Shown here in pieces: positions 2 through 10,202 of a stretch of 64,000 bases of DNA; positions within the stretch are counted from its first letter, which is position 1, and the number at the start of each line of letters is the position of its first letter. The stretch is from positions 25,211 to 89,210 of the forward strand of contig JAAYTD010000043.1 of the NCBI GenBank assembly GCA_012518115.1. The letters run 5' to 3'. The stretch is from Ignavibacteria bacterium (GTDB taxonomy: Bacteria; Bacteroidota; Ignavibacteria; Kapaibacteriales; UBA2268). Below the pieces are notes generated by a model. That model worked only from the letters and a program-made list of their open reading frames with translations. It was not told the origin of the DNA and made no database searches. The position numbers and the translations under genes are program-made.

Positions 2-172
2 GCTATTTATAGAGATCCTGTCAATAAAATATCTGTCATAGATAATAAAGAATGTATCGCCTGCGGTGAATGTTTAGATAATTGTAAAAAATGTAGTATG
101 AATTTCTTTAGAAAAAATGAAAAACACAAGACTGTTAATAAACTCTGCAAAGAAAATTTGCCTGCTGATTAG
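2..172 (+). CDS. C-terminal fragment of a 4Fe-4S binding protein (5' end outside window)
   Basis: Manual translation of frame 2: AIYRDPVNKISVIDNKECIACGECLDNCKKCSMNFFRK...LPAD*, with a CxxCxxCxxxC ferredoxin motif; stop TAG at 170-172; not in ORF track. Confidence 0.8.
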   Translation, partial: AIYRDPVNKISVIDNKECIACGECLDNCKKCSMNFFRKNEKHKTVNKLCKENLPAD

Positions 173-1460
173 CTTACTTGTTCTAAGTAGTAATTATAGC
201 TATTCAGGAATGGATTGCCGTAGTATGCTTGGTGGATACATAAAACCATTATTTGGTTCTAAATACGTCGTGGGCGGTATCGAGGTAACCGGTGCATTTG
301 CCGGTATGACTGATAGGAATATAAAAAACGGTCTGGCTATCGCTGGATTGGGCTTTAATTTTAATGACTCTAAGCATCAAATCTATGTTGAAGGTGGGTA
401 TAAGAATTTTTATAATTCTAAAGGTGGTCCCGGAAGAAAAGGGATTGATACAAGCGGTGCAATTGGTGGGTATGAACAATTTCCTGCTGTTGATAAGTTA
501 AAATTGAGCTTTCGCGAGCTCTTCTATAAGTATGATGTACCAAACTTTAAAGTGGGAATTGGCTTGCAAACAATGAAACTTCCCGATTATTTCTTACTTG
601 ATGAAAGAGTTGTTGGACTTAATTCATCACTTAGTTCCGGAAACTTCACTTATAGCGTTACTGCTGCTTCCGTTCTTGCTCAATTTGCTCGATATGCTGA
701 TTTCTGCGGTACTCGTCATATTTATAACCTTACAAGAGGCAGACGAGTTGACTTCTTAGGTGATTATTTTGGTGAATCAAATTTTTGGGCTGCCACAGTA
801 AAATGGGTAAATAATCCAAGCGAAAATTCACAAGCAACTACTGAAAACAACAGTGAAGATGATGAGTTTGAAGATTTTACTCCTGTAGAAGTTTCTAAAC
901 CCTTTCTGCAAGAAGTAGGCGCTATATTTTACAATGAATTTGGAGCTGCTTTCCCTGATTATAAATACTATGGTGGACTATTTGCCGGATTTAATCTCCC
1001 TCTAGGAATTAACTTAAAAGCCGAAGCTCTTTATCAATATATTTATAAAGAAAATGCTGTAGGATATTTTGTTGAATTGAGCAAATTATTTGATTTGGGC
1101 AATGGTTTCAGCAGTCTTGTTGGTGCAGCTATGGTGGGAAAGATTGAAATAGATAGCAATACTATGTTTTATCCTTCATATACAAATCTGTTTATGGGAG
1201 AAGTTATGAAAATGGATGCCTTAGATTTGCCTGTAGCTCAAGCATTCGTAAAATTCGATTTCCCTTGGCTTGATAATATGTACTTTAAAACTACTGTAGC
1301 AGGACAAACCGCAGGTTCTCATACAAAAGAATTAGATTTAGAATTAAGCGCCCGATTTTTTAATCATCTAAAAACAACATTAATCGGTGGATATATTAGT
1401 TCTGACGCCCTTAAGCAAGATACATATTTCGGAAGAATAGAATTTAGAGTAGCATTTTAA
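117..1460 (+). CDS. Putative outer-membrane beta-barrel protein of unknown function
   Basis: N-terminal signal-like stretch, many amphipathic Gly/aromatic-rich strands, C-terminal beta-signal-like GRIEFRVAF ending in Phe; overlaps upstream gene by 56 nt. Confidence 0.6.
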   Translation: MKNTRLLINSAKKICLLISLLVLSSNYSYSGMDCRSMLGGYIKPLFGSKYVVGGIEVTGAFAGMTDRNIKNGLAIAGLGFNFNDSKHQIYVEGGYKNFYNSKGGPGRKGIDTSGAIGGYEQFPAVDKLKLSFRELFYKYDVPNFKVGIGLQTMKLPDYFLLDERVVGLNSSLSSGNFTYSVTAASVLAQFARYADFCGTRHIYNLTRGRRVDFLGDYFGESNFWAATVKWVNNPSENSQATTENNSEDDEFEDFTPVEVSKPFLQEVGAIFYNEFGAAFPDYKYYGGLFAGFNLPLGINLKAEALYQYIYKENAVGYFVELSKLFDLGNGFSSLVGAAMVGKIEIDSNTMFYPSYTNLFMGEVMKMDALDLPVAQAFVKFDFPWLDNMYFKTTVAGQTAGSHTKELDLELSARFFNHLKTTLIGGYISSDALKQDTYFGRIEFRVAF

Positions 1461-1497
1461 TATTAAAACACATAATTTATATTTGAAAATTAATACA

Positions 1498-2349
1498 ATG
1501 GAAAATAAAAATAATAATCCACGAAGAGAATTTATTAAAAAGTTCGGATTAATGGGCATCGGGATTTGTGCCGGTGGAACTTTTCTAAATTCTTGTACAA
1601 AAAATGTGCTTAGTCCATTTAGGACCGGGTATTCTATAAATAGCGAGAAGTGTATCGGATGCGGAGTGTGCGTATCTGAATGCTACTATAAAGCAATTGT
1701 ATTGCCATTTAATTCTAAATATCACATAGAACCGGAGCTATGTATCGAGTGCGGAGAATGCGAACCTCAATGTAAATATCAAGCTATTTTTATAAGTACA
1801 CCTACTTATAATTTTTTATCAGATAAATGTATTGGCTGCGGCAAATGTATAGAAAAATGCGTAAATGAAGGAAATTGCATCACTTATGAAAAAGAAACAT
1901 ACACGATAAGGAACAAATGCAAACCGGGTCGCTGCGAGCATCAGTGCGAAAAAGCTTGTGAGTATGGAGCTATAACAATAGCTGACAAGTGTGTTATTGA
2001 TACTGAAAAATGCCAAAAATGCGGTAAATGCGTAGCTGCTTGTCCATACAATGCGATTAATCCCGCAAAAGTAACTAAAGATGAAGCAAAATGTACTCAT
2101 TGTGGTCAATGCTATGAAGTTTGTACTGAATTTAATGCTATAGAAAAAATTAAACCTGACGGATATACTGAACCGCATATAGATCAAACTATATGTACAG
2201 CTTGCGGAGATTGCCGAACATTCTGCACTAAATACGATGCAATTAAATATAAATTAGAAATTGCGCGCATTGACAGTTCACTATGTGTAGATTGCGGTAA
2301 ATGCGTTTCGAGCTGCGAGCAAAATGCTATTGAATTAATAGAAATATAA
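1498..2349 (+). CDS. Tat-exported polyferredoxin lipoprotein (8 [4Fe-4S] motifs)
   Basis: PRREFIK twin-arginine motif, hydrophobic stretch, lipobox-like FLNSC; 7 canonical CxxCxxCxxxC motifs plus one variant (CKPGRCEHQCEKAC); ATG at 1498 preferred over TTG at 1483. Confidence 0.85.
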   Translation: MENKNNNPRREFIKKFGLMGIGICAGGTFLNSCTKNVLSPFRTGYSINSEKCIGCGVCVSECYYKAIVLPFNSKYHIEPELCIECGECEPQCKYQAIFISTPTYNFLSDKCIGCGKCIEKCVNEGNCITYEKETYTIRNKCKPGRCEHQCEKACEYGAITIADKCVIDTEKCQKCGKCVAACPYNAINPAKVTKDEAKCTHCGQCYEVCTEFNAIEKIKPDGYTEPHIDQTICTACGDCRTFCTKYDAIKYKLEIARIDSSLCVDCGKCVSSCEQNAIELIEI

Positions 2350-2431
2350 GTTTAGAATTTACTTAAGTAATTAGTAAGTAAAATAATTCTCAAATCATCA
2401 TCTAATTTATAAGAATTAGTTTGAATATAAT

Positions 2432-2465
2432 TGAGGTAGATAAGAAAAATCTACCTCATTTTTTT
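2432..2465 (+). terminator. Rho-independent terminator after the polyferredoxin operon
   Basis: Perfect 10-bp stem TGAGGTAGAT/ATCTACCTCA, 7-nt loop, followed by T7. Confidence 0.85.
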
Positions 2466-2556: not shown

Positions 2557-3906
2557 ATGAAATTTAACCCCAAAAGAAATTTTTTATTTATATTAACCGT
2601 TGTATTTTTCTTTTCAATTTCGCCTATTTTTGCTCAATCAGGTATGTATTTTAGTGAATTTTGCAAGCGTCTTGAAATGTATTTTCATCCAGACTTAGTT
2701 GCTGATATACACAAAGAGATGCCACCAAGTGATTTTCTTGTATGGGGTTGGGATGTTGGAGATTTTTCAGGAGATGATAATAATGATGTCGCTTTTTCCA
2801 TACGTCGTTCAGGGCAAAAAGACAAAATTATAGATGTTTATCTTTTTGTAGATATTGACGGTTTTTTGACAAAAGTTGGTGAATTTCAAGTTAATTATTT
2901 TGAATTGCCATTAGAAGTCGGTGTAGCTATAAGACATAATCTTTGTTATGTTACGCAAAAATTCAAGCAATTTAATTGGGACATAAAAAGCTACAAGTTT
3001 ATAAACAATGTTTTAGTTAGTTACGATATTTATTCTACACGTCGTATTGGAAAAATTACGCAAGAAACCTGCAAGAATTTTTACGACTTACGCAATACTA
3101 AACGATATTTAAATACAGCCAAAAATACAACTGAATTCTGGGCAGATTATTTAGTAATTCCTTCATATTCGCGAGGTCGTTTAGTTTATAGCGGTTTTTC
3201 TGATGAAGCTTCTGTTAATTATATTGAATATGTTCCTGAAGGTGCTTATTGGTTAACTGGCGCTTCAGATTTATCTTATAGTGTCAATTCTGTCTATGAC
3301 GATCAGTATTTATATTTTTCTATAACTGTACAAGATGATTACGTAGTTACTCCATTTTGTGATACTTGCGTTAGTGAAGGAATAGAAATATGGCTTGATG
3401 TGCATGATTACAAAGATGCAAGTGAACGTTTAGCAACAATTAGTAACAATGTGCCACTTTTCAACAATCAAGCAAAAGAAGGAATTTATAAATTTACTAT
3501 ACGTGCAGGCGATTTTATAACTCGGCAACCAACTGTTATTATGAGTTCCAGCACTGAACTCACTCCAATTCAAAAAGTCGCTTCAAGAGGTATAAATGTT
3601 ATATGTGATCTAAATGAAAAAGGATATTTTTGTATATTGAAAATTCCATTTACAGCACTCGGTCGCACAAATGTACCGATAACAAACAATGAAATAGTTG
3701 AATGGGGTTGCACAGTAAAAGTTATTGACTATGACAATGAATTTCGCCCCGAAGAACGCACTGTGATGACTACTTCTATTTTCCAAGAAGATAATCCTTC
3801 TACTTACGGCTCACTACTATTTATTCCTGACGAAAAATGGTATGGCGATATTTACAATGTTCTGCAAGCAAAATTAGTAAATGATCTTAAAGAATTTGGT
3901 TTCTAA
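2557..3906 (+). CDS. Secreted protein with C-terminal CBM9/DOMON-like domain
   Basis: Signal peptide (..SPIFAQ); FG-GAP-like GDFSGDDNNDVA; YDDQYLYFSITVQDD..EGIEIWLD and LKIPFTALG resemble CBM9-like sugar-binding domains. Confidence 0.5.
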   Translation: MKFNPKRNFLFILTVVFFFSISPIFAQSGMYFSEFCKRLEMYFHPDLVADIHKEMPPSDFLVWGWDVGDFSGDDNNDVAFSIRRSGQKDKIIDVYLFVDIDGFLTKVGEFQVNYFELPLEVGVAIRHNLCYVTQKFKQFNWDIKSYKFINNVLVSYDIYSTRRIGKITQETCKNFYDLRNTKRYLNTAKNTTEFWADYLVIPSYSRGRLVYSGFSDEASVNYIEYVPEGAYWLTGASDLSYSVNSVYDDQYLYFSITVQDDYVVTPFCDTCVSEGIEIWLDVHDYKDASERLATISNNVPLFNNQAKEGIYKFTIRAGDFITRQPTVIMSSSTELTPIQKVASRGINVICDLNEKGYFCILKIPFTALGRTNVPITNNEIVEWGCTVKVIDYDNEFRPEERTVMTTSIFQEDNPSTYGSLLFIPDEKWYGDIYNVLQAKLVNDLKEFGF

Positions 3907-6949: not shown

Positions 6950-7843
6950 ATGAAAAAAACTAAAGGAATAATTCTTGCGGGCGGTGCTGGCTCACGTCTC
7001 TACCCTCTTTCTAAAATCTATAGCAAGCAACTTGTAGCTGTCTATGATAAACCGATGATTTATTATCCTTTTTCTATGTTAATATCTGTCGGCATAAACG
7101 AAATTTTGATTATTTCAGACGAAAACACTTTGCCTTTTTATGAAAAATTATTTGGCAATGGTAATGATTTAGGTTTAGAAATTTCTTACGCATTGCAAAA
7201 AGAACCGAACGGAATTGCAGAAGCTTTTATCATTGGTGAAAAATTTATTGGCAACGACAATGTTGCACTAATTCTTGGAGATAATATATTTTACGGCAAC
7301 ATAAGTTTCTTTACTAATGCTGTAAAAAACAATAAAATTGCTACAATTTTTGCTATATATGTAAAAGAACCTGAACGTTACGGCGTTATTGAGTTTGATA
7401 AAGACAATAATCCCATAAGTATAATTGAAAAACCAAAAGAATTTGTATCTAATTTCGCTGTTCCCGGATTTTATATCTATAATAAATCAGTTGTTGAAAT
7501 AGCTAAAAAACTAAAACCGTCAGCTCGTAACGAACTTGAAATTACAGATATAAATCAACACTACTTAACACAAGGAACTATTGATGTTATTAAAATTAAA
7601 CAAGGTGTAGCTTGGTTAGATTGCGGAACTCCCGAATCACTTCTTGACGCAAGTAATTTAATAGCTTCAATTGAGCAAAGACAAGGATTGAAAATTGCAT
7701 GTCCCGAAGAAGCTGCACTAAATCAAAACTTCTTAACTATAGAAAAATTTAAGGAATATCTGAACTCAATCCCAAATTGCGATTATAAAAAATATTTAGA
7801 AAATATATTAAAAAAATATAAAGATTATGAGAATATCAAGTAA
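6950..7843 (+). CDS. rfbA: Glucose-1-phosphate thymidylyltransferase
   Basis: GIILAGGAGSRLYP, KQL..YDKPMIYYP, LILGDNIF, EKP, SARNELEIT motifs. Confidence 0.93.
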   Translation: MKKTKGIILAGGAGSRLYPLSKIYSKQLVAVYDKPMIYYPFSMLISVGINEILIISDENTLPFYEKLFGNGNDLGLEISYALQKEPNGIAEAFIIGEKFIGNDNVALILGDNIFYGNISFFTNAVKNNKIATIFAIYVKEPERYGVIEFDKDNNPISIIEKPKEFVSNFAVPGFYIYNKSVVEIAKKLKPSARNELEITDINQHYLTQGTIDVIKIKQGVAWLDCGTPESLLDASNLIASIEQRQGLKIACPEEAALNQNFLTIEKFKEYLNSIPNCDYKKYLENILKKYKDYENIK

Positions 7844-9275
7844 ACTTTCACTCCGATTTGTATTACTATTTGCAGTTTTTACAATAATAGCTTTCTTCCT
7901 ATTTTCATATTTAGTACGTGAAAAATCGGAATACGACTACATATATTTTCTATCAACATTGAACAATACAATAAGTTCTACTCTTGTTGAAAATGATAGT
8001 CTCAAAAAAAATTACAATGAAATCCTTAATAAAATACATAGCCAGTTTTCCAATAAACCAATCATTCGCATTACATTAATTTCATGCTCTGGAAAAGTTA
8101 TATTTGAATCCGATACATTCGCCCATAAAATGGACAATCACAAAACAAGACCTGAAATTATGAAAGCACTCAATGGCGAAGTTGGCACAAGTATCCGTCA
8201 AAGTAAAACACTTAAAAAAGATTTCCTTTTCGTAGCGTCGCCTGTTAAAAATTCAGACAAAACGCAAGTTATAGGTATAATAAGAACTTCTGTTTTAGTC
8301 AAAGATTTTGATAGTCAAACTGCAAAATTTGCCATAACAATTATATTTTTTCTTGTTATCTTTCTTCTCTTCGGCTTTTTAATTCTTGATAGATTTTCAA
8401 AAAGAATAACTGTCCCTATTTGTGAAATAGAAAATGCTACAAAAGAATTTGCATCAGGAAATCTTGATGTAACCGTTAAGGCAGAAGGAAAAGATGAGAT
8501 AGCTTCGTTAGCTAATAATTTTAATATTATGATTGACAACTTTAAAAAACTTTTGTCTGAACTTAAATATTTAGAACAAGTTAAACGCGATTTTATTGTC
8601 AATGTCTCACATGAATTAAAAACACCTCTTACTGCTATCAAAGGTTTTATAGAAACTTTGGAAGACGAGCTCATAGAAGATGAAATAATTGAAGAAAAAG
8701 AACTTAAAAACTATTTGAAATATATTGATATTACAAAAAGACATACGCATCGTTTAATATCTATAGTGCAAGATTTATTGATGCTATCAGAAACAGAAAC
8801 GGTTTCTTCTTCACTTATGAAAAGTAAAACAGATGTAAAAATGCTATTAGAAAAGATGTTGCCTATATTTTCTCAAAAATTAGAAGAAAAACAATTAAAA
8901 TTAATAACAGAATTTACCCCAGATTTCCCTGAAATTTCTGTAGATGCTTTTAAATTTGAACAAATTTTTGTGAATTTAATTGACAATGCAATTAAGTATT
9001 CGGATAAAGGTGAAATTAAAATAGCTGCTAAAGCTGATAATGAATATGCTTATTTTACAGTAACAGATTCAGGAATTGGAATAAAACCTGAAGACCAAAC
9101 GCGTATTTTTGAACGTTTTTATACCGCTAACAAATCACGCTCAAGACAAACAGGCGGAACAGGTTTAGGATTATCAATTGTTAAGCATATTGTGCTTTTA
9201 CATAAAGGTGAAATTACCGTAGAAAGTAAGTTGGGCACAGGAACAGTGTTTTTAATAAAGCTACCAATTGTATAG
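7827..9275 (+). CDS. Membrane sensor histidine kinase (PhoR-like, HAMP domain)
   Basis: Two TM segments, MDNHxxRPEI periplasmic motif, HAMP (DEIASLA..FN.M), H-box NVSHELKTPLT, N/G1/F/G2 boxes. Confidence 0.9.
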   Translation: MRISSKLSLRFVLLFAVFTIIAFFLFSYLVREKSEYDYIYFLSTLNNTISSTLVENDSLKKNYNEILNKIHSQFSNKPIIRITLISCSGKVIFESDTFAHKMDNHKTRPEIMKALNGEVGTSIRQSKTLKKDFLFVASPVKNSDKTQVIGIIRTSVLVKDFDSQTAKFAITIIFFLVIFLLFGFLILDRFSKRITVPICEIENATKEFASGNLDVTVKAEGKDEIASLANNFNIMIDNFKKLLSELKYLEQVKRDFIVNVSHELKTPLTAIKGFIETLEDELIEDEIIEEKELKNYLKYIDITKRHTHRLISIVQDLLMLSETETVSSSLMKSKTDVKMLLEKMLPIFSQKLEEKQLKLITEFTPDFPEISVDAFKFEQIFVNLIDNAIKYSDKGEIKIAAKADNEYAYFTVTDSGIGIKPEDQTRIFERFYTANKSRSRQTGGTGLGLSIVKHIVLLHKGEITVESKLGTGTVFLIKLPIV

Positions 9276-9278
9276 TAA

Positions 9279-9854
9279 TTATTTTGCCGTCATTTTTTCT
9301 TCTGCACTAAGAATTAAAGCATTTATTTCATCTTTTGTCATATCTTTATCTATAACAAAAGTATCTATAACTTTAATTTTTATACTTGCAAAAGGTAGCG
9401 GAAATTCAAACTTATCCCAACTTTTATGAAATTGCTTTTTCGCAGAAGTTTCACAACGTAAAAAAAAGATAGGCACTTGCCCTCTTTGTGCAGCTATAAA
9501 TGCTCCCGCTTTCATTTTATGGCGAGGACCGCGAGGACCGTCTGGAGTAATAAAAACACTTGTTTCACTTGTAGCTTCTATCATCTGCTCCAACACTTCA
9601 TTTCCTTTTTTTGAAGAAGAACCACGTATTAGTTTATATTTCCACGAAGATAGCAAGTACGATAAAATTTCACCATCTTTGCTTAAACTAACAACCGCAC
9701 TAAAATTATTACCTGAAAAGTATCGCCAAATCGCTAGCATTTCATTGTGCCAAAAAGCAACAACTTTATGAGCTTGCGGTATCTCACCTACGAGCTCTAT
9801 TCGCCAAGTTTTAGAAAGAATATTTAAAATTACTTTTAATAAAGTTTTTTTCAT
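9279..9854 (-). CDS. DUF374 / lysophospholipid acyltransferase-family protein
   Basis: FWH, SLSKDGE, IRGSSSKKG, ITPDGPRGP, SWDKF..PLPF motifs. Confidence 0.85.
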   Translation of the reverse strand: MKKTLLKVILNILSKTWRIELVGEIPQAHKVVAFWHNEMLAIWRYFSGNNFSAVVSLSKDGEILSYLLSSWKYKLIRGSSSKKGNEVLEQMIEATSETSVFITPDGPRGPRHKMKAGAFIAAQRGQVPIFFLRCETSAKKQFHKSWDKFEFPLPFASIKIKVIDTFVIDKDMTKDEINALILSAEEKMTAK

Positions 9855-9921
9855 TTCAGCAAATATAAATATTTTTTATTAATCCATTATTATATAGCAA
9901 AAAAATAATACTACTTTGAAT

Positions 9922-10164
9922 AAATTCTTCTCTTGAGAGTTATCCTAATTAACCCCGTATGAGTAACATTTTTTATTCGCACAACAGCAACACTAGTTAG
10001 AACCCAACGGGGTTTGTCGTTATTTTTTTTAATAGACTACCCCGTCAAGCTAGCGCTTGCCACCCCTTCGTTCCAAAGGGGAATTTGCAGCCCGACCTTT
10101 AGACAAGTTGAATTTTAAAAAATCATACTAATCCTACAAATCCCATAAATCACAGTTTAGACAA
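9922..10164. repeat. Cluster of degenerate REP-like palindromic elements
   Basis: GC-richer intergenic patch with AACCCCGT/ACGGGGTT inverted pair (9951-9958, 10007-10014), hairpins CAAGC-TAGC-GCTTG (10046-10059) and CCCCTT-N7-AAGGGG (10063-10081), and four AATC units at 9-10 nt spacing (10121-10151). Confidence 0.55.
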
Positions 10165-10202
10165 AAAAAGGTGCTTCTTTTTCTAAAAGAAGAAGCACCT
10201 TT
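10163..10202 (-). terminator. Rho-independent terminator of the M13 peptidase gene
   Basis: 13-bp perfect stem AAAGGTGCTTCTT/AAGAAGCACCTTT with a U-tract on the minus strand. Confidence 0.85.

Follow-up and report, generated by a model that had tools for sequence, protein, structure and literature searches.

The genome assembly GCA_012518115.1 of an Ignavibacteria bacterium carries, at the start of the 64,000 nt stretch analyzed here (the window; contig JAAYTD010000043.1, G000:C24:25211-89210), three plus-strand open reading frames (ORFs), ORF1 (2..172), ORF2 (117..1460) and ORF3 (1483..2349). The original prediction, made from the letters of the window, was that these are three tightly coupled genes for a 4Fe-4S protein, an outer-membrane β-barrel and a polyferredoxin exported by the twin-arginine translocation (Tat) pathway, closed by one terminator. 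The coupling and the closure are confirmed: ORF1 and ORF2 overlap by 56 nt (117-172), ORF2 and ORF3 are spaced by 22 nt, and a terminator-like hairpin with a run of seven T's follows. ORF1 is open at its 5′ end (56 aa), and when the upstream genes are read (locus L003, a numbering of the same genome that extends upstream of the window) it is clear that the start of the window splits a four-gene unit, with the first gene and most of the second lying outside it. The order of the whole set is p123 (a 123 aa ORF with a Sec signal), a gene for a 381 aa NapH-like membrane Fe-S protein that starts 974 nt before the window, the barrel gene and the ferredoxin lipoprotein gene. The last of these begins with a TTG codon, and an alternative ATG lies 15 nt further in.

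Upstream of p123 lie purH and its terminator. The genes upstream had been pointed to as a place where a molybdo-enzyme or hydrogenase subunit, absent from the window, could still lie. They include no such subunit and no other catalytic subunit by Pfam and NCBIfam, and no NapA-like gene is present within 10 kb upstream or 4 kb downstream. With Pfam, ORF1 gives only a sub-threshold Fer4 match and ORF3 the strong Fer4 match listed in Table 1. Two of the four families, those of the barrel and of p123, have no Pfam or NCBIfam model, and no published account of this four-gene set was found in the literature searched.

Properties of the four proteins

The part of the second gene that reaches into the window had been read as a 4Fe-4S protein of its own. 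It does carry [4Fe-4S] motifs, but what it encodes is the C-terminal end of the 381 aa protein and no small ferredoxin. The whole protein combines a signal peptide with a periplasmic Cys motif, a pair of acidic DEF repeats and several hydrophobic segments, and two CxxCxxCxxxC [4Fe-4S] motifs are seen in the sequence of its C-terminus (Fer4_10, 27.5 bits against a cut-off of 25.5). Pfam recognizes Fer4_5 (PF12801) in two stretches, at 49.7 bits against a cut-off of 22. The nearest NCBIfam models are NapH/MauN (78 bits), NapH (76 bits) and NosR (73 bits), which have curated cut-offs of 213 (TIGR02163), 234 (NF007013) and 1000 (NF046105), respectively; because the scores are so far below these values the protein is called NapH-like here and not NapH. 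Neither it nor p123 has a match in Pfam to the flavin mononucleotide (FMN)-binding domain FMN_bind (PF04205), which lies outside the cytosol in flavinylated NapH-like proteins of the NosR/PceC type.

The 447 aa product of ORF2 belongs to no Pfam or NCBIfam family at E ≤ 0.01, Alginate_exp and OprD included. An AlphaFold2 model made on a 66-sequence alignment (mean predicted local distance difference test score, pLDDT, 86.9; predicted template modeling score, pTM, 0.82) has 18 strands, and its best Foldseek matches are MOMP and AlgE (E 1e-13 to 1e-12), with the Occ/OprD proteins extending the list down to 1e-9 and template modeling (TM) scores of 0.5-0.66. In a structural search of ∼48,000 chains with VIA-align, AlgE1 ranks first (Z 26.0, root-mean-square deviation 3.1 Å over 312 residues), followed by OpdQ (Z 25.9), OccAB, OccD, MOMP and chitoporin at Z 24-26 and by maltoporin at about 20; the nine best matches are all narrow 18-strand, substrate-specific channels, and an Atlas search also puts the protein near alginate-export-like clusters. 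The prediction of an outer-membrane-type barrel is thus upheld, and the C-terminal residue is F, L, I or Y in 64 of 66 relatives. No MtrB-type chain is among the matches listed (50 from VIA-align, together with those from Foldseek), an absence that excludes nothing, and the barrel sequence has no CxxCH. The family is small and accounts for 11 of the 90%-identity clusters that represent 5.8 billion proteins; 1.84 billion representatives searched with the barrel gave 143 matches at E ≤ 1e-3 and 73 at E ≤ 1e-30.

The further suggestion that the barrel sheathes a wire in the manner of MtrAB fares badly with this model. Channels of the 18-strand AlgE/Occ type have pores of a few ångströms; to enclose MtrA, MtrB requires 26 strands, and the width of a dicluster (2×[4Fe-4S]) ferredoxin domain is ∼25-30 Å. 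Since the predicted barrel matches the 18-strand AlgE/OprD type (Z 26) and not a 26-strand MtrB-type sheath, and because of these widths, threading of the polyferredoxin through it is physically unlikely. A co-fold of barrel residues 32-447 with polyferredoxin residues 38-288 gave an ipSAE of 0.00 in both runs, which were made without controls and speak neither for nor against contact.

The polyferredoxin itself agrees with the prediction in its eight cluster motifs, Tat leader and lipobox. Seven of the motifs are canonical CxxCxxCxxxC and one is a CX4CX3CX3C variant (C146/151/155/159); among 13 orthologues 31 of the 32 cluster cysteines never vary and the remaining one, C248, has a conservation of 90% or more, and some orthologues have extra dicluster domains that bring the count to 10. 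The twin arginines and C38 are invariant (Table 1), the genome encodes TatC (202.8 bits), and the protein is probably lipidated at C38. Its closest relatives of solved structure are MvhB (9sw6_G, E 5.7e-32) and FwdF (1e-22 to 5e-24), and NrfC-type β subunits match far more weakly (1.4e-6), so that on sequence relationship it is not an ordinary four-cluster β subunit of a molybdo-enzyme. Like NapG it has a Tat signal and is encoded in one cluster with a NapH-like partner; unlike NapG it has eight motifs and not four and no association with a nitrate reductase. The ORF is not among the nine CxxCH-bearing ORFs of the genome.

The protein p123 was assigned to no family even when all 19 members were searched with Pfam at E ≤ 5, and Atlas likewise named none. 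Its predicted fold is an immunoglobulin (Ig)-like sandwich (pLDDT 85.8), and the matches of this fold are generically Ig-like (best Foldseek E 4e-4; top VIA Z 9.5, which is within the noise range of the tool); weak Foldseek matches to PmoB/AmoB domains and the copper protein CrdA lie at E 1e-3 to 1e-2. H54, C57 and C109 are invariant, and C24, which is probably the first mature residue, is nearly so; together they make up a site of three Cys and one His. In the 70 nt gap between p123 and the NapH-like gene there is a terminator-like hairpin with an 11 bp stem (L003 10981-11007), which is crossed by an RNA-library contig; it may be an attenuator that sets p123 at a higher level.

A short acidic motif is common to the NapH-like protein and the barrel. 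Each of 21 NapH-like orthologues bears between one and eight repeats of the [DE][DE]F type in its N-terminal tail, which is periplasmic. The barrel has a corresponding insert (Table 1), in which [DE]F occurs once or more in 65 of 66 relatives and twice or more in 52; the density of the motif is 7.0 per 100 aa there and 1.1 in the rest of the protein, and the median net charge of the insert is −7. In the model, a count of strands that starts at the C-terminus, on the periplasmic side, puts the insert between strands 8 and 9 and so makes it a periplasmic turn. The mature form of p123 is basic (median net charge +7, isoelectric point 9.4), and its potential partners are acidic, with net charges of −15 for the polyferredoxin, −8 for the barrel and −4 to −30 for the NapH-like tails. 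This pattern suggests that p123 may dock on the DEF motifs of proteins of both membranes.

Table 1. Positions of features at the start of the window (window coordinates)
Feature	Position	Strand	Basis or remark
NapH-like protein, C-terminal 56 codons	1..172	+	Whole gene G000:C24:24237-25382 (L003 11027-12172)
Predicted outer-membrane barrel, 447 aa, Sec signal peptide	117..1460	+	AlphaFold2 model, fold searches
Barrel Cys34 codon	216..218	+	Cys in 66/66 aligned relatives; conserved N-terminal segment just past the signal peptide
Barrel Cys197 codon	705..707	+	Cys in 62/66 relatives; long loop between strands 7 and 8
Barrel acidic [DE]F insert, residues 232-263	810..905	+	Interval between strands 8 and 9, AlphaFold2 strand list
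Predicted Tat-exported lipoprotein polyferredoxin, 288 aa, eight [4Fe-4S] motifs	1483..2349	+	Pfam Fer4, E 2.7e-38, 6 stretches
Polyferredoxin twin-arginine codons R14, R15	1522..1527	+	Invariant in 13/13 orthologues
Polyferredoxin lipobox Cys codon, C38	1594..1596	+	Invariant in 13/13; preceded by [LVIM]-x-[SAGN] in all
48 nt terminator-bearing repeat	2417..2464	+	Other copy G000:C24:23589-23636 (L003 10379-10426), after purH
Intrinsic-terminator-like hairpin and T7 run	2432..2465	+	10 bp stem, 7 nt loop and T7 run at 2432-2458; closes the set

Conservation, fusions and genomic setting

A scan of one genome per species found 24 loci with the barrel, whose titles are mostly those of the FCB (Fibrobacteres-Chlorobi-Bacteroidetes) group (Bacteroidales, Melioribacteraceae, Kapaibacterium, Neomarinimicrobiota), although a few labels look unreliable. 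In 20 of them p123 and the NapH-like gene lie upstream of the barrel; in L007 p123 is in two pieces, L006 is cut, and the pair is absent from L005, L008 and L026. A polyferredoxin gene follows the barrel in 13 of the 24, and four are too short to tell. The predicted pairing of barrel and polyferredoxin therefore stands only in part, since seven of the 20 loci with enough downstream sequence have no ferredoxin gene. For this reason p123, the NapH-like protein and the barrel are taken to be the conserved core, and the polyferredoxin to be dispensable for its role.

Among these loci a TetR gene lies directly upstream of p123 in at least L013, L015, L018, L019 and L021, of which L013, L018 and L021 lack the ferredoxin gene and L015 and L019 are cut too early to show one. 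In this TetR-linked subgroup the NapH-like core lacks its first Cys motif. L013 has an MMPL/RND transporter gene 3′ of the barrel, and at L025 the position after the barrel is occupied by an 889 aa ORF (7507-10176) that contains five CxxCH motifs and matches Cytochrome_C7 and MtrC/MtrF weakly. The barrel of L008 stands alone among unrelated genes. The flanks of the 23 related loci hold no consistent catalytic or transport partner; the flanking genes noted are TetR (five), RND/MMPL (two), DUF2202 (two) and NosD-like (one).

A metagenome scan seeded with the fused family described below gave 80 loci, 52 of them with a barrel; the seed biases this set, and several of the contigs are near-duplicates. 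A ferredoxin-lipoprotein gene lies 3′ of the barrel in 45 of the 52 and six are cut; in the one that is left, L083, the barrel ORF is truncated and a ferredoxin gene is absent. The ferredoxins are of two kinds. Long polyferredoxins of 7-10 motifs, the type found in the window, almost always have both the twin arginines and the lipobox. Short lipoprotein ferredoxins of 2-6 motifs lack the twin arginines and come with a second, Cys-poor p123 paralogue. In the lipoprotein signals of the short forms (L041-L074, L086) KK, KR or RNR takes the place of RR.

In some relatives the NapH-like protein and the barrel are a single polypeptide. These fusions were first seen as three representatives of 856-904 aa, and a further search aimed at them yielded 22 clusters, with lengths of 856-927 aa and a coverage of 90-100%, whose source names include “4Fe-4S binding protein [Paludibacteraceae bacterium]”; 13 of the metagenome loci are of this type. 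A search for longer relatives of the barrel found none, the fusions having come from the representative search and the further search. At the junction the barrel signal peptide persists as an internal hydrophobic segment that ends in an AxA-type site, and in that position, after an Fe-S domain that is cytoplasmic, such a segment would make topological sense. For the barrel to arrive in the outer membrane, the fusion would presumably have to be cleaved. The fusions also indicate tight, stoichiometric coupling of the two proteins.

In the genome analyzed here the set appears to have been acquired as a unit. The 48 nt repeat that carries the closing terminator (Table 1) has a second copy 92% identical to it, the hairpin is bidirectional, and the hairpin core occurs at only two places in the 2.48 Mb genome, flanking the four genes. 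Terminator-like sites number 10 in 4.4 kb, compared with 2.0 ± 1.4 in shuffled sequence. The barrel profile matched one of 400 other genomes of the same phylum and did not match a 100%-complete genome of the same genus. As the only two copies of the repeat bracket the set and the genome of the same genus lacks the barrel, the four genes look like an inserted accessory cassette. No clean empty insertion site was found in relatives; the upstream neighbors of the CBM9-like gene that borders the set differ in the three genomes read. This gene (2557-3906, plus strand), directly 3′ of the set, encodes a 449 aa secreted protein with a weak CBM9_1 match (E 1e-5) and has relatives in 21 of 21 genomes of the same family. 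Further upstream of the window (L003 3884-5426) are two adjoining ORFs of 262 and 250 aa, the first of which has, by eye, an SPPY-type motif as in DNA methyltransferases; the two could form a restriction-modification pair.

The genome encodes MenA (223 bits), which makes menaquinol a plausible electron donor, and no Rnf or Nqr subunit was found in it. Its only ORF with more than one CxxCH is one of 863 aa with 11 such motifs (G000:C34:1559-4150, plus strand), which adjoins two large flavoprotein-like ORFs. An unlinked NapH-like paralogue with a Cys motif and DEF/EEF repeats (G000:C70:12743-13750, minus strand) and an unlinked p123-like paralogue (G000:C89:20142-20525, minus strand) have no barrel nearby. 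DNA of the locus is present in 14 digester, biogas or bioreactor metagenome runs at a word share of at least 0.84, nine of which are possibly the source. Four RNA-library runs gave contigs that correspond to parts of each of the four genes and differ by no more than a single letter in any listed piece, and one contig of 869 nt spans p123 into the NapH-like gene; none covers parts of the barrel gene (∼L003 12505-12945), a gap that proves nothing.

Relationship to known systems and possible roles

NapGH is described as a quinol dehydrogenase with a Tat-exported NapG and NapH-NapG fusions are reported (PMC5449189), and NapH-like proteins are treated as modular transmembrane electron carriers (PMC8238504). 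The locus resembles NapGH and NosGH in having a polytopic Fer4_5 protein with two cytoplasmic [4Fe-4S] motifs and an adjoining Tat-exported multi-cluster ferredoxin, and it shares with the NapH-like systems a modular logic without a fixed catalytic partner (PMC8238504; PMC5449189). Once the upstream genes are read, the polyferredoxin is seen to be the periplasmic partner of a NapH-like protein. To that extent it follows a logic already known for NapGH (PMC5449189), which does not favor the interpretation first proposed. The differences from NapGH and NosGH are several: there is no NapA, NosZ or other catalytic subunit and no FMN-binding domain, the ferredoxin has eight clusters and not four, bears a lipobox and is closest to MvhB/FwdF, and an outer-membrane barrel, a Cys/His Ig-like protein and the DEF repeats are added. 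MvhB and FwdF are similar in being chains of dicluster ferredoxin domains, but they are cytoplasmic subunits of a hydrogenase and a formylmethanofuran dehydrogenase according to their entry titles, whereas the protein here has the signals of a bacterial Tat lipoprotein.

The MtrAB, PioAB, Pcc and Cyc2 systems offer a parallel in that the gene for a barrel adjoins that for an exported multi-center redox protein. Here, in contrast to MtrAB, PioAB and Pcc, there is no heme motif, and the predicted barrel has 18 strands and is AlgE/Occ-like and not a wide sheath; unlike Cyc2 it has no N-terminal heme domain, and a single conserved cysteine, Cys34, lies ahead of the barrel. Its fold is that of AlgE, OccD-OccK (OprD), MOMP and chitoporin (Z 24-26, root-mean-square deviation 3.0-4.1 Å over 301-326 residues), but it is only 7-15% identical to these and shares no Pfam match with them. 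Features of its own are the conserved N-terminal segment with Cys34, the Cys of the long loop that joins strands 7 and 8, and the acidic DEF turn. L008 apart, its family is embedded in a redox gene set.

On the observed gene set, folds, export signals, synteny, fusions, shared motif and charge pattern, we regard the genes at the start of the window, with about even confidence, as the outer half of a four-gene NapGH-like module that passes electrons from menaquinol to the periplasm and is equipped with a dedicated solute channel. The best-supported role for such a module is the reduction (or, should electrons flow the other way, the oxidation) of a small substrate at the outer envelope. The NapH-like protein would take electrons from menaquinol, the presumed donor, or from its own cytoplasmic clusters and deliver them to the periplasmic side as NapGH does. 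The polyferredoxin would be a membrane-tethered, multi-cluster relay that lengthens the path through the periplasm. The barrel would not sheathe a wire but would be a dedicated channel that admits or releases a small redox-active substrate, if such a substrate exists, for reduction in the periplasm. The DEF motifs of the NapH-like tail and the barrel turn would be docking sites for the basic p123, which might then be an adaptor or carrier between the two membranes.

A number of points weigh against this interpretation. No acceptor or catalytic site was identified in the gene set, and the 381 aa protein scores far below the cut-offs of the NapH and NosR models. The barrel occurs without a ferredoxin gene in seven genome loci (L008, L013, L016, L018, L021, L023 and L025), and pairs of p123 and NapH-like genes occur without a barrel, for example in L090, L100, L101, L108 and L109. 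The periplasmic placement of the DEF insert depends on strand parity in a predicted model, and the sequence of the lipoprotein would allow either a periplasmic or a surface-exposed position. Finally, the depth of the RNA-library contigs is low (2-8) and DNA may be present in such libraries, so that transcription is unproven.

Among the other explanations the handling of a metal survives best, although we think it unlikely. The barrel would import oxidized iron or copper, the DEF motifs and the p123 site would bind the cation, and the NapH-like protein and polyferredoxin would supply the reducing power; the cupric reductase CcoG and FtrABCD, which has a membrane polyferredoxin, are possible analogues. 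The conserved C24/H54/C57/C109 site fits this idea, as it lies in an Ig-like protein that is exported by Sec and should therefore acquire any cofactor in the periplasm, and so do the weak similarity of p123 to PmoB/AmoB domains and CrdA, the strong acidity of the DEF tails and the ferritin-like DUF2202 genes near the cluster in two loci. However, the cluster holds no inner-membrane metal permease, the fold matches of p123 are generically Ig-like, with the top Z inside the noise range, and no metal regulator is a consistent neighbor, TetR being the commonest at five loci.

Slightly less probable again is that electrons leave the cell by way of the barrel, through a heme-free conduit across the outer membrane that would serve minerals, shuttles or syntrophic partners as acceptors in anaerobic digesters. 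The ferredoxin lipoprotein might insert into or cap the barrel, or the N-terminal segment of the barrel and its pair of cysteines might hold a cofactor in the manner of Cyc2. For the FCB bacteria of digesters one can picture, with equal reserve, a path that leads from the Fe-S chain through p123 and a conserved Cys-bearing plug of the barrel across the outer membrane, or else ends at a shuttle lodged in the channel. The tight pairing of barrel and ferredoxin-lipoprotein genes is in keeping with this, as are the five-CxxCH cytochrome ORF that stands in the ferredoxin's place at L025, a cluster count that varies from 2 to 10 motifs like that of a modular wire, the two conserved barrel cysteines, the finding of the DNA in anaerobic digester and bioreactor metagenomes, and a genome with a single multi-CxxCH ORF. 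The predicted 18-strand barrel, with its narrow-channel matches, argues against it, as do the 26 strands that MtrB requires to enclose MtrA and the ∼25-30 Å width of a ferredoxin domain; two cysteines are by themselves too few to hold a cluster, the residues past the lipobox Cys are not acidic, unlike the surface-export signal of Bacteroidota, and seven loci have no ferredoxin gene. Were it true, cytochrome-poor fermenters could reach minerals, humics or syntrophic partners, and the multi-heme locus L025 would be the same conduit built on another cofactor.

A relay of thiols or sulfur is more doubtful still. In it, the NapH-like protein would supply electrons for the reduction of disulfides or persulfides on p123, on the periplasmic Cys motif of its own tail and on barrel Cys34 and Cys197, so that the channel is gated or matured or substrates of the polysulfide type are processed. 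All three core proteins do have conserved cysteines, the core stands without the polyferredoxin in seven loci, and the fusions imply that the NapH-like protein is coupled 1:1 to the barrel, but no thioredoxin-fold or DsbD-like component is present, and the TetR-linked subgroup lacks the first Cys motif of the NapH-like core. That the barrel is a general porin next to the Fe-S genes by chance, as the solitary barrel of L008 might suggest, is strongly disfavored and very improbable, given a gene order conserved across dozens of loci, fusions in 22 protein clusters, a DEF motif common to the NapH-like protein and the barrel, and a 56 nt overlap of their genes.

The reading we favor, a NapGH-like module with its own solute channel, has several implications. 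To our knowledge, the known routes by which Gram-negative bacteria bring respiratory electrons to or through the outer membrane rely on multi-heme cytochromes; the present module probably carries electrons to the outer envelope without heme. It joins a NapH-like carrier, a lipid-anchored Fe-S chain and a dedicated channel in a gene set that is conserved and patchily distributed, and it gives a functional context to two unannotated families, p123 and the barrel. DEF is a candidate for a short docking motif common to an inner-membrane and an outer-membrane protein. The naturally occurring fusions, in which an inner-membrane protein and an outer-membrane barrel are one chain, pose a question of biogenesis, namely whether the internal signal peptide is cleaved, and the short lipoprotein ferredoxins without twin arginines raise that of Fe-S protein export without Tat. 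Should the substrate prove to be a shuttle or an acceptor outside the cell, the module would also bear on the flow of electrons in anaerobic digesters.

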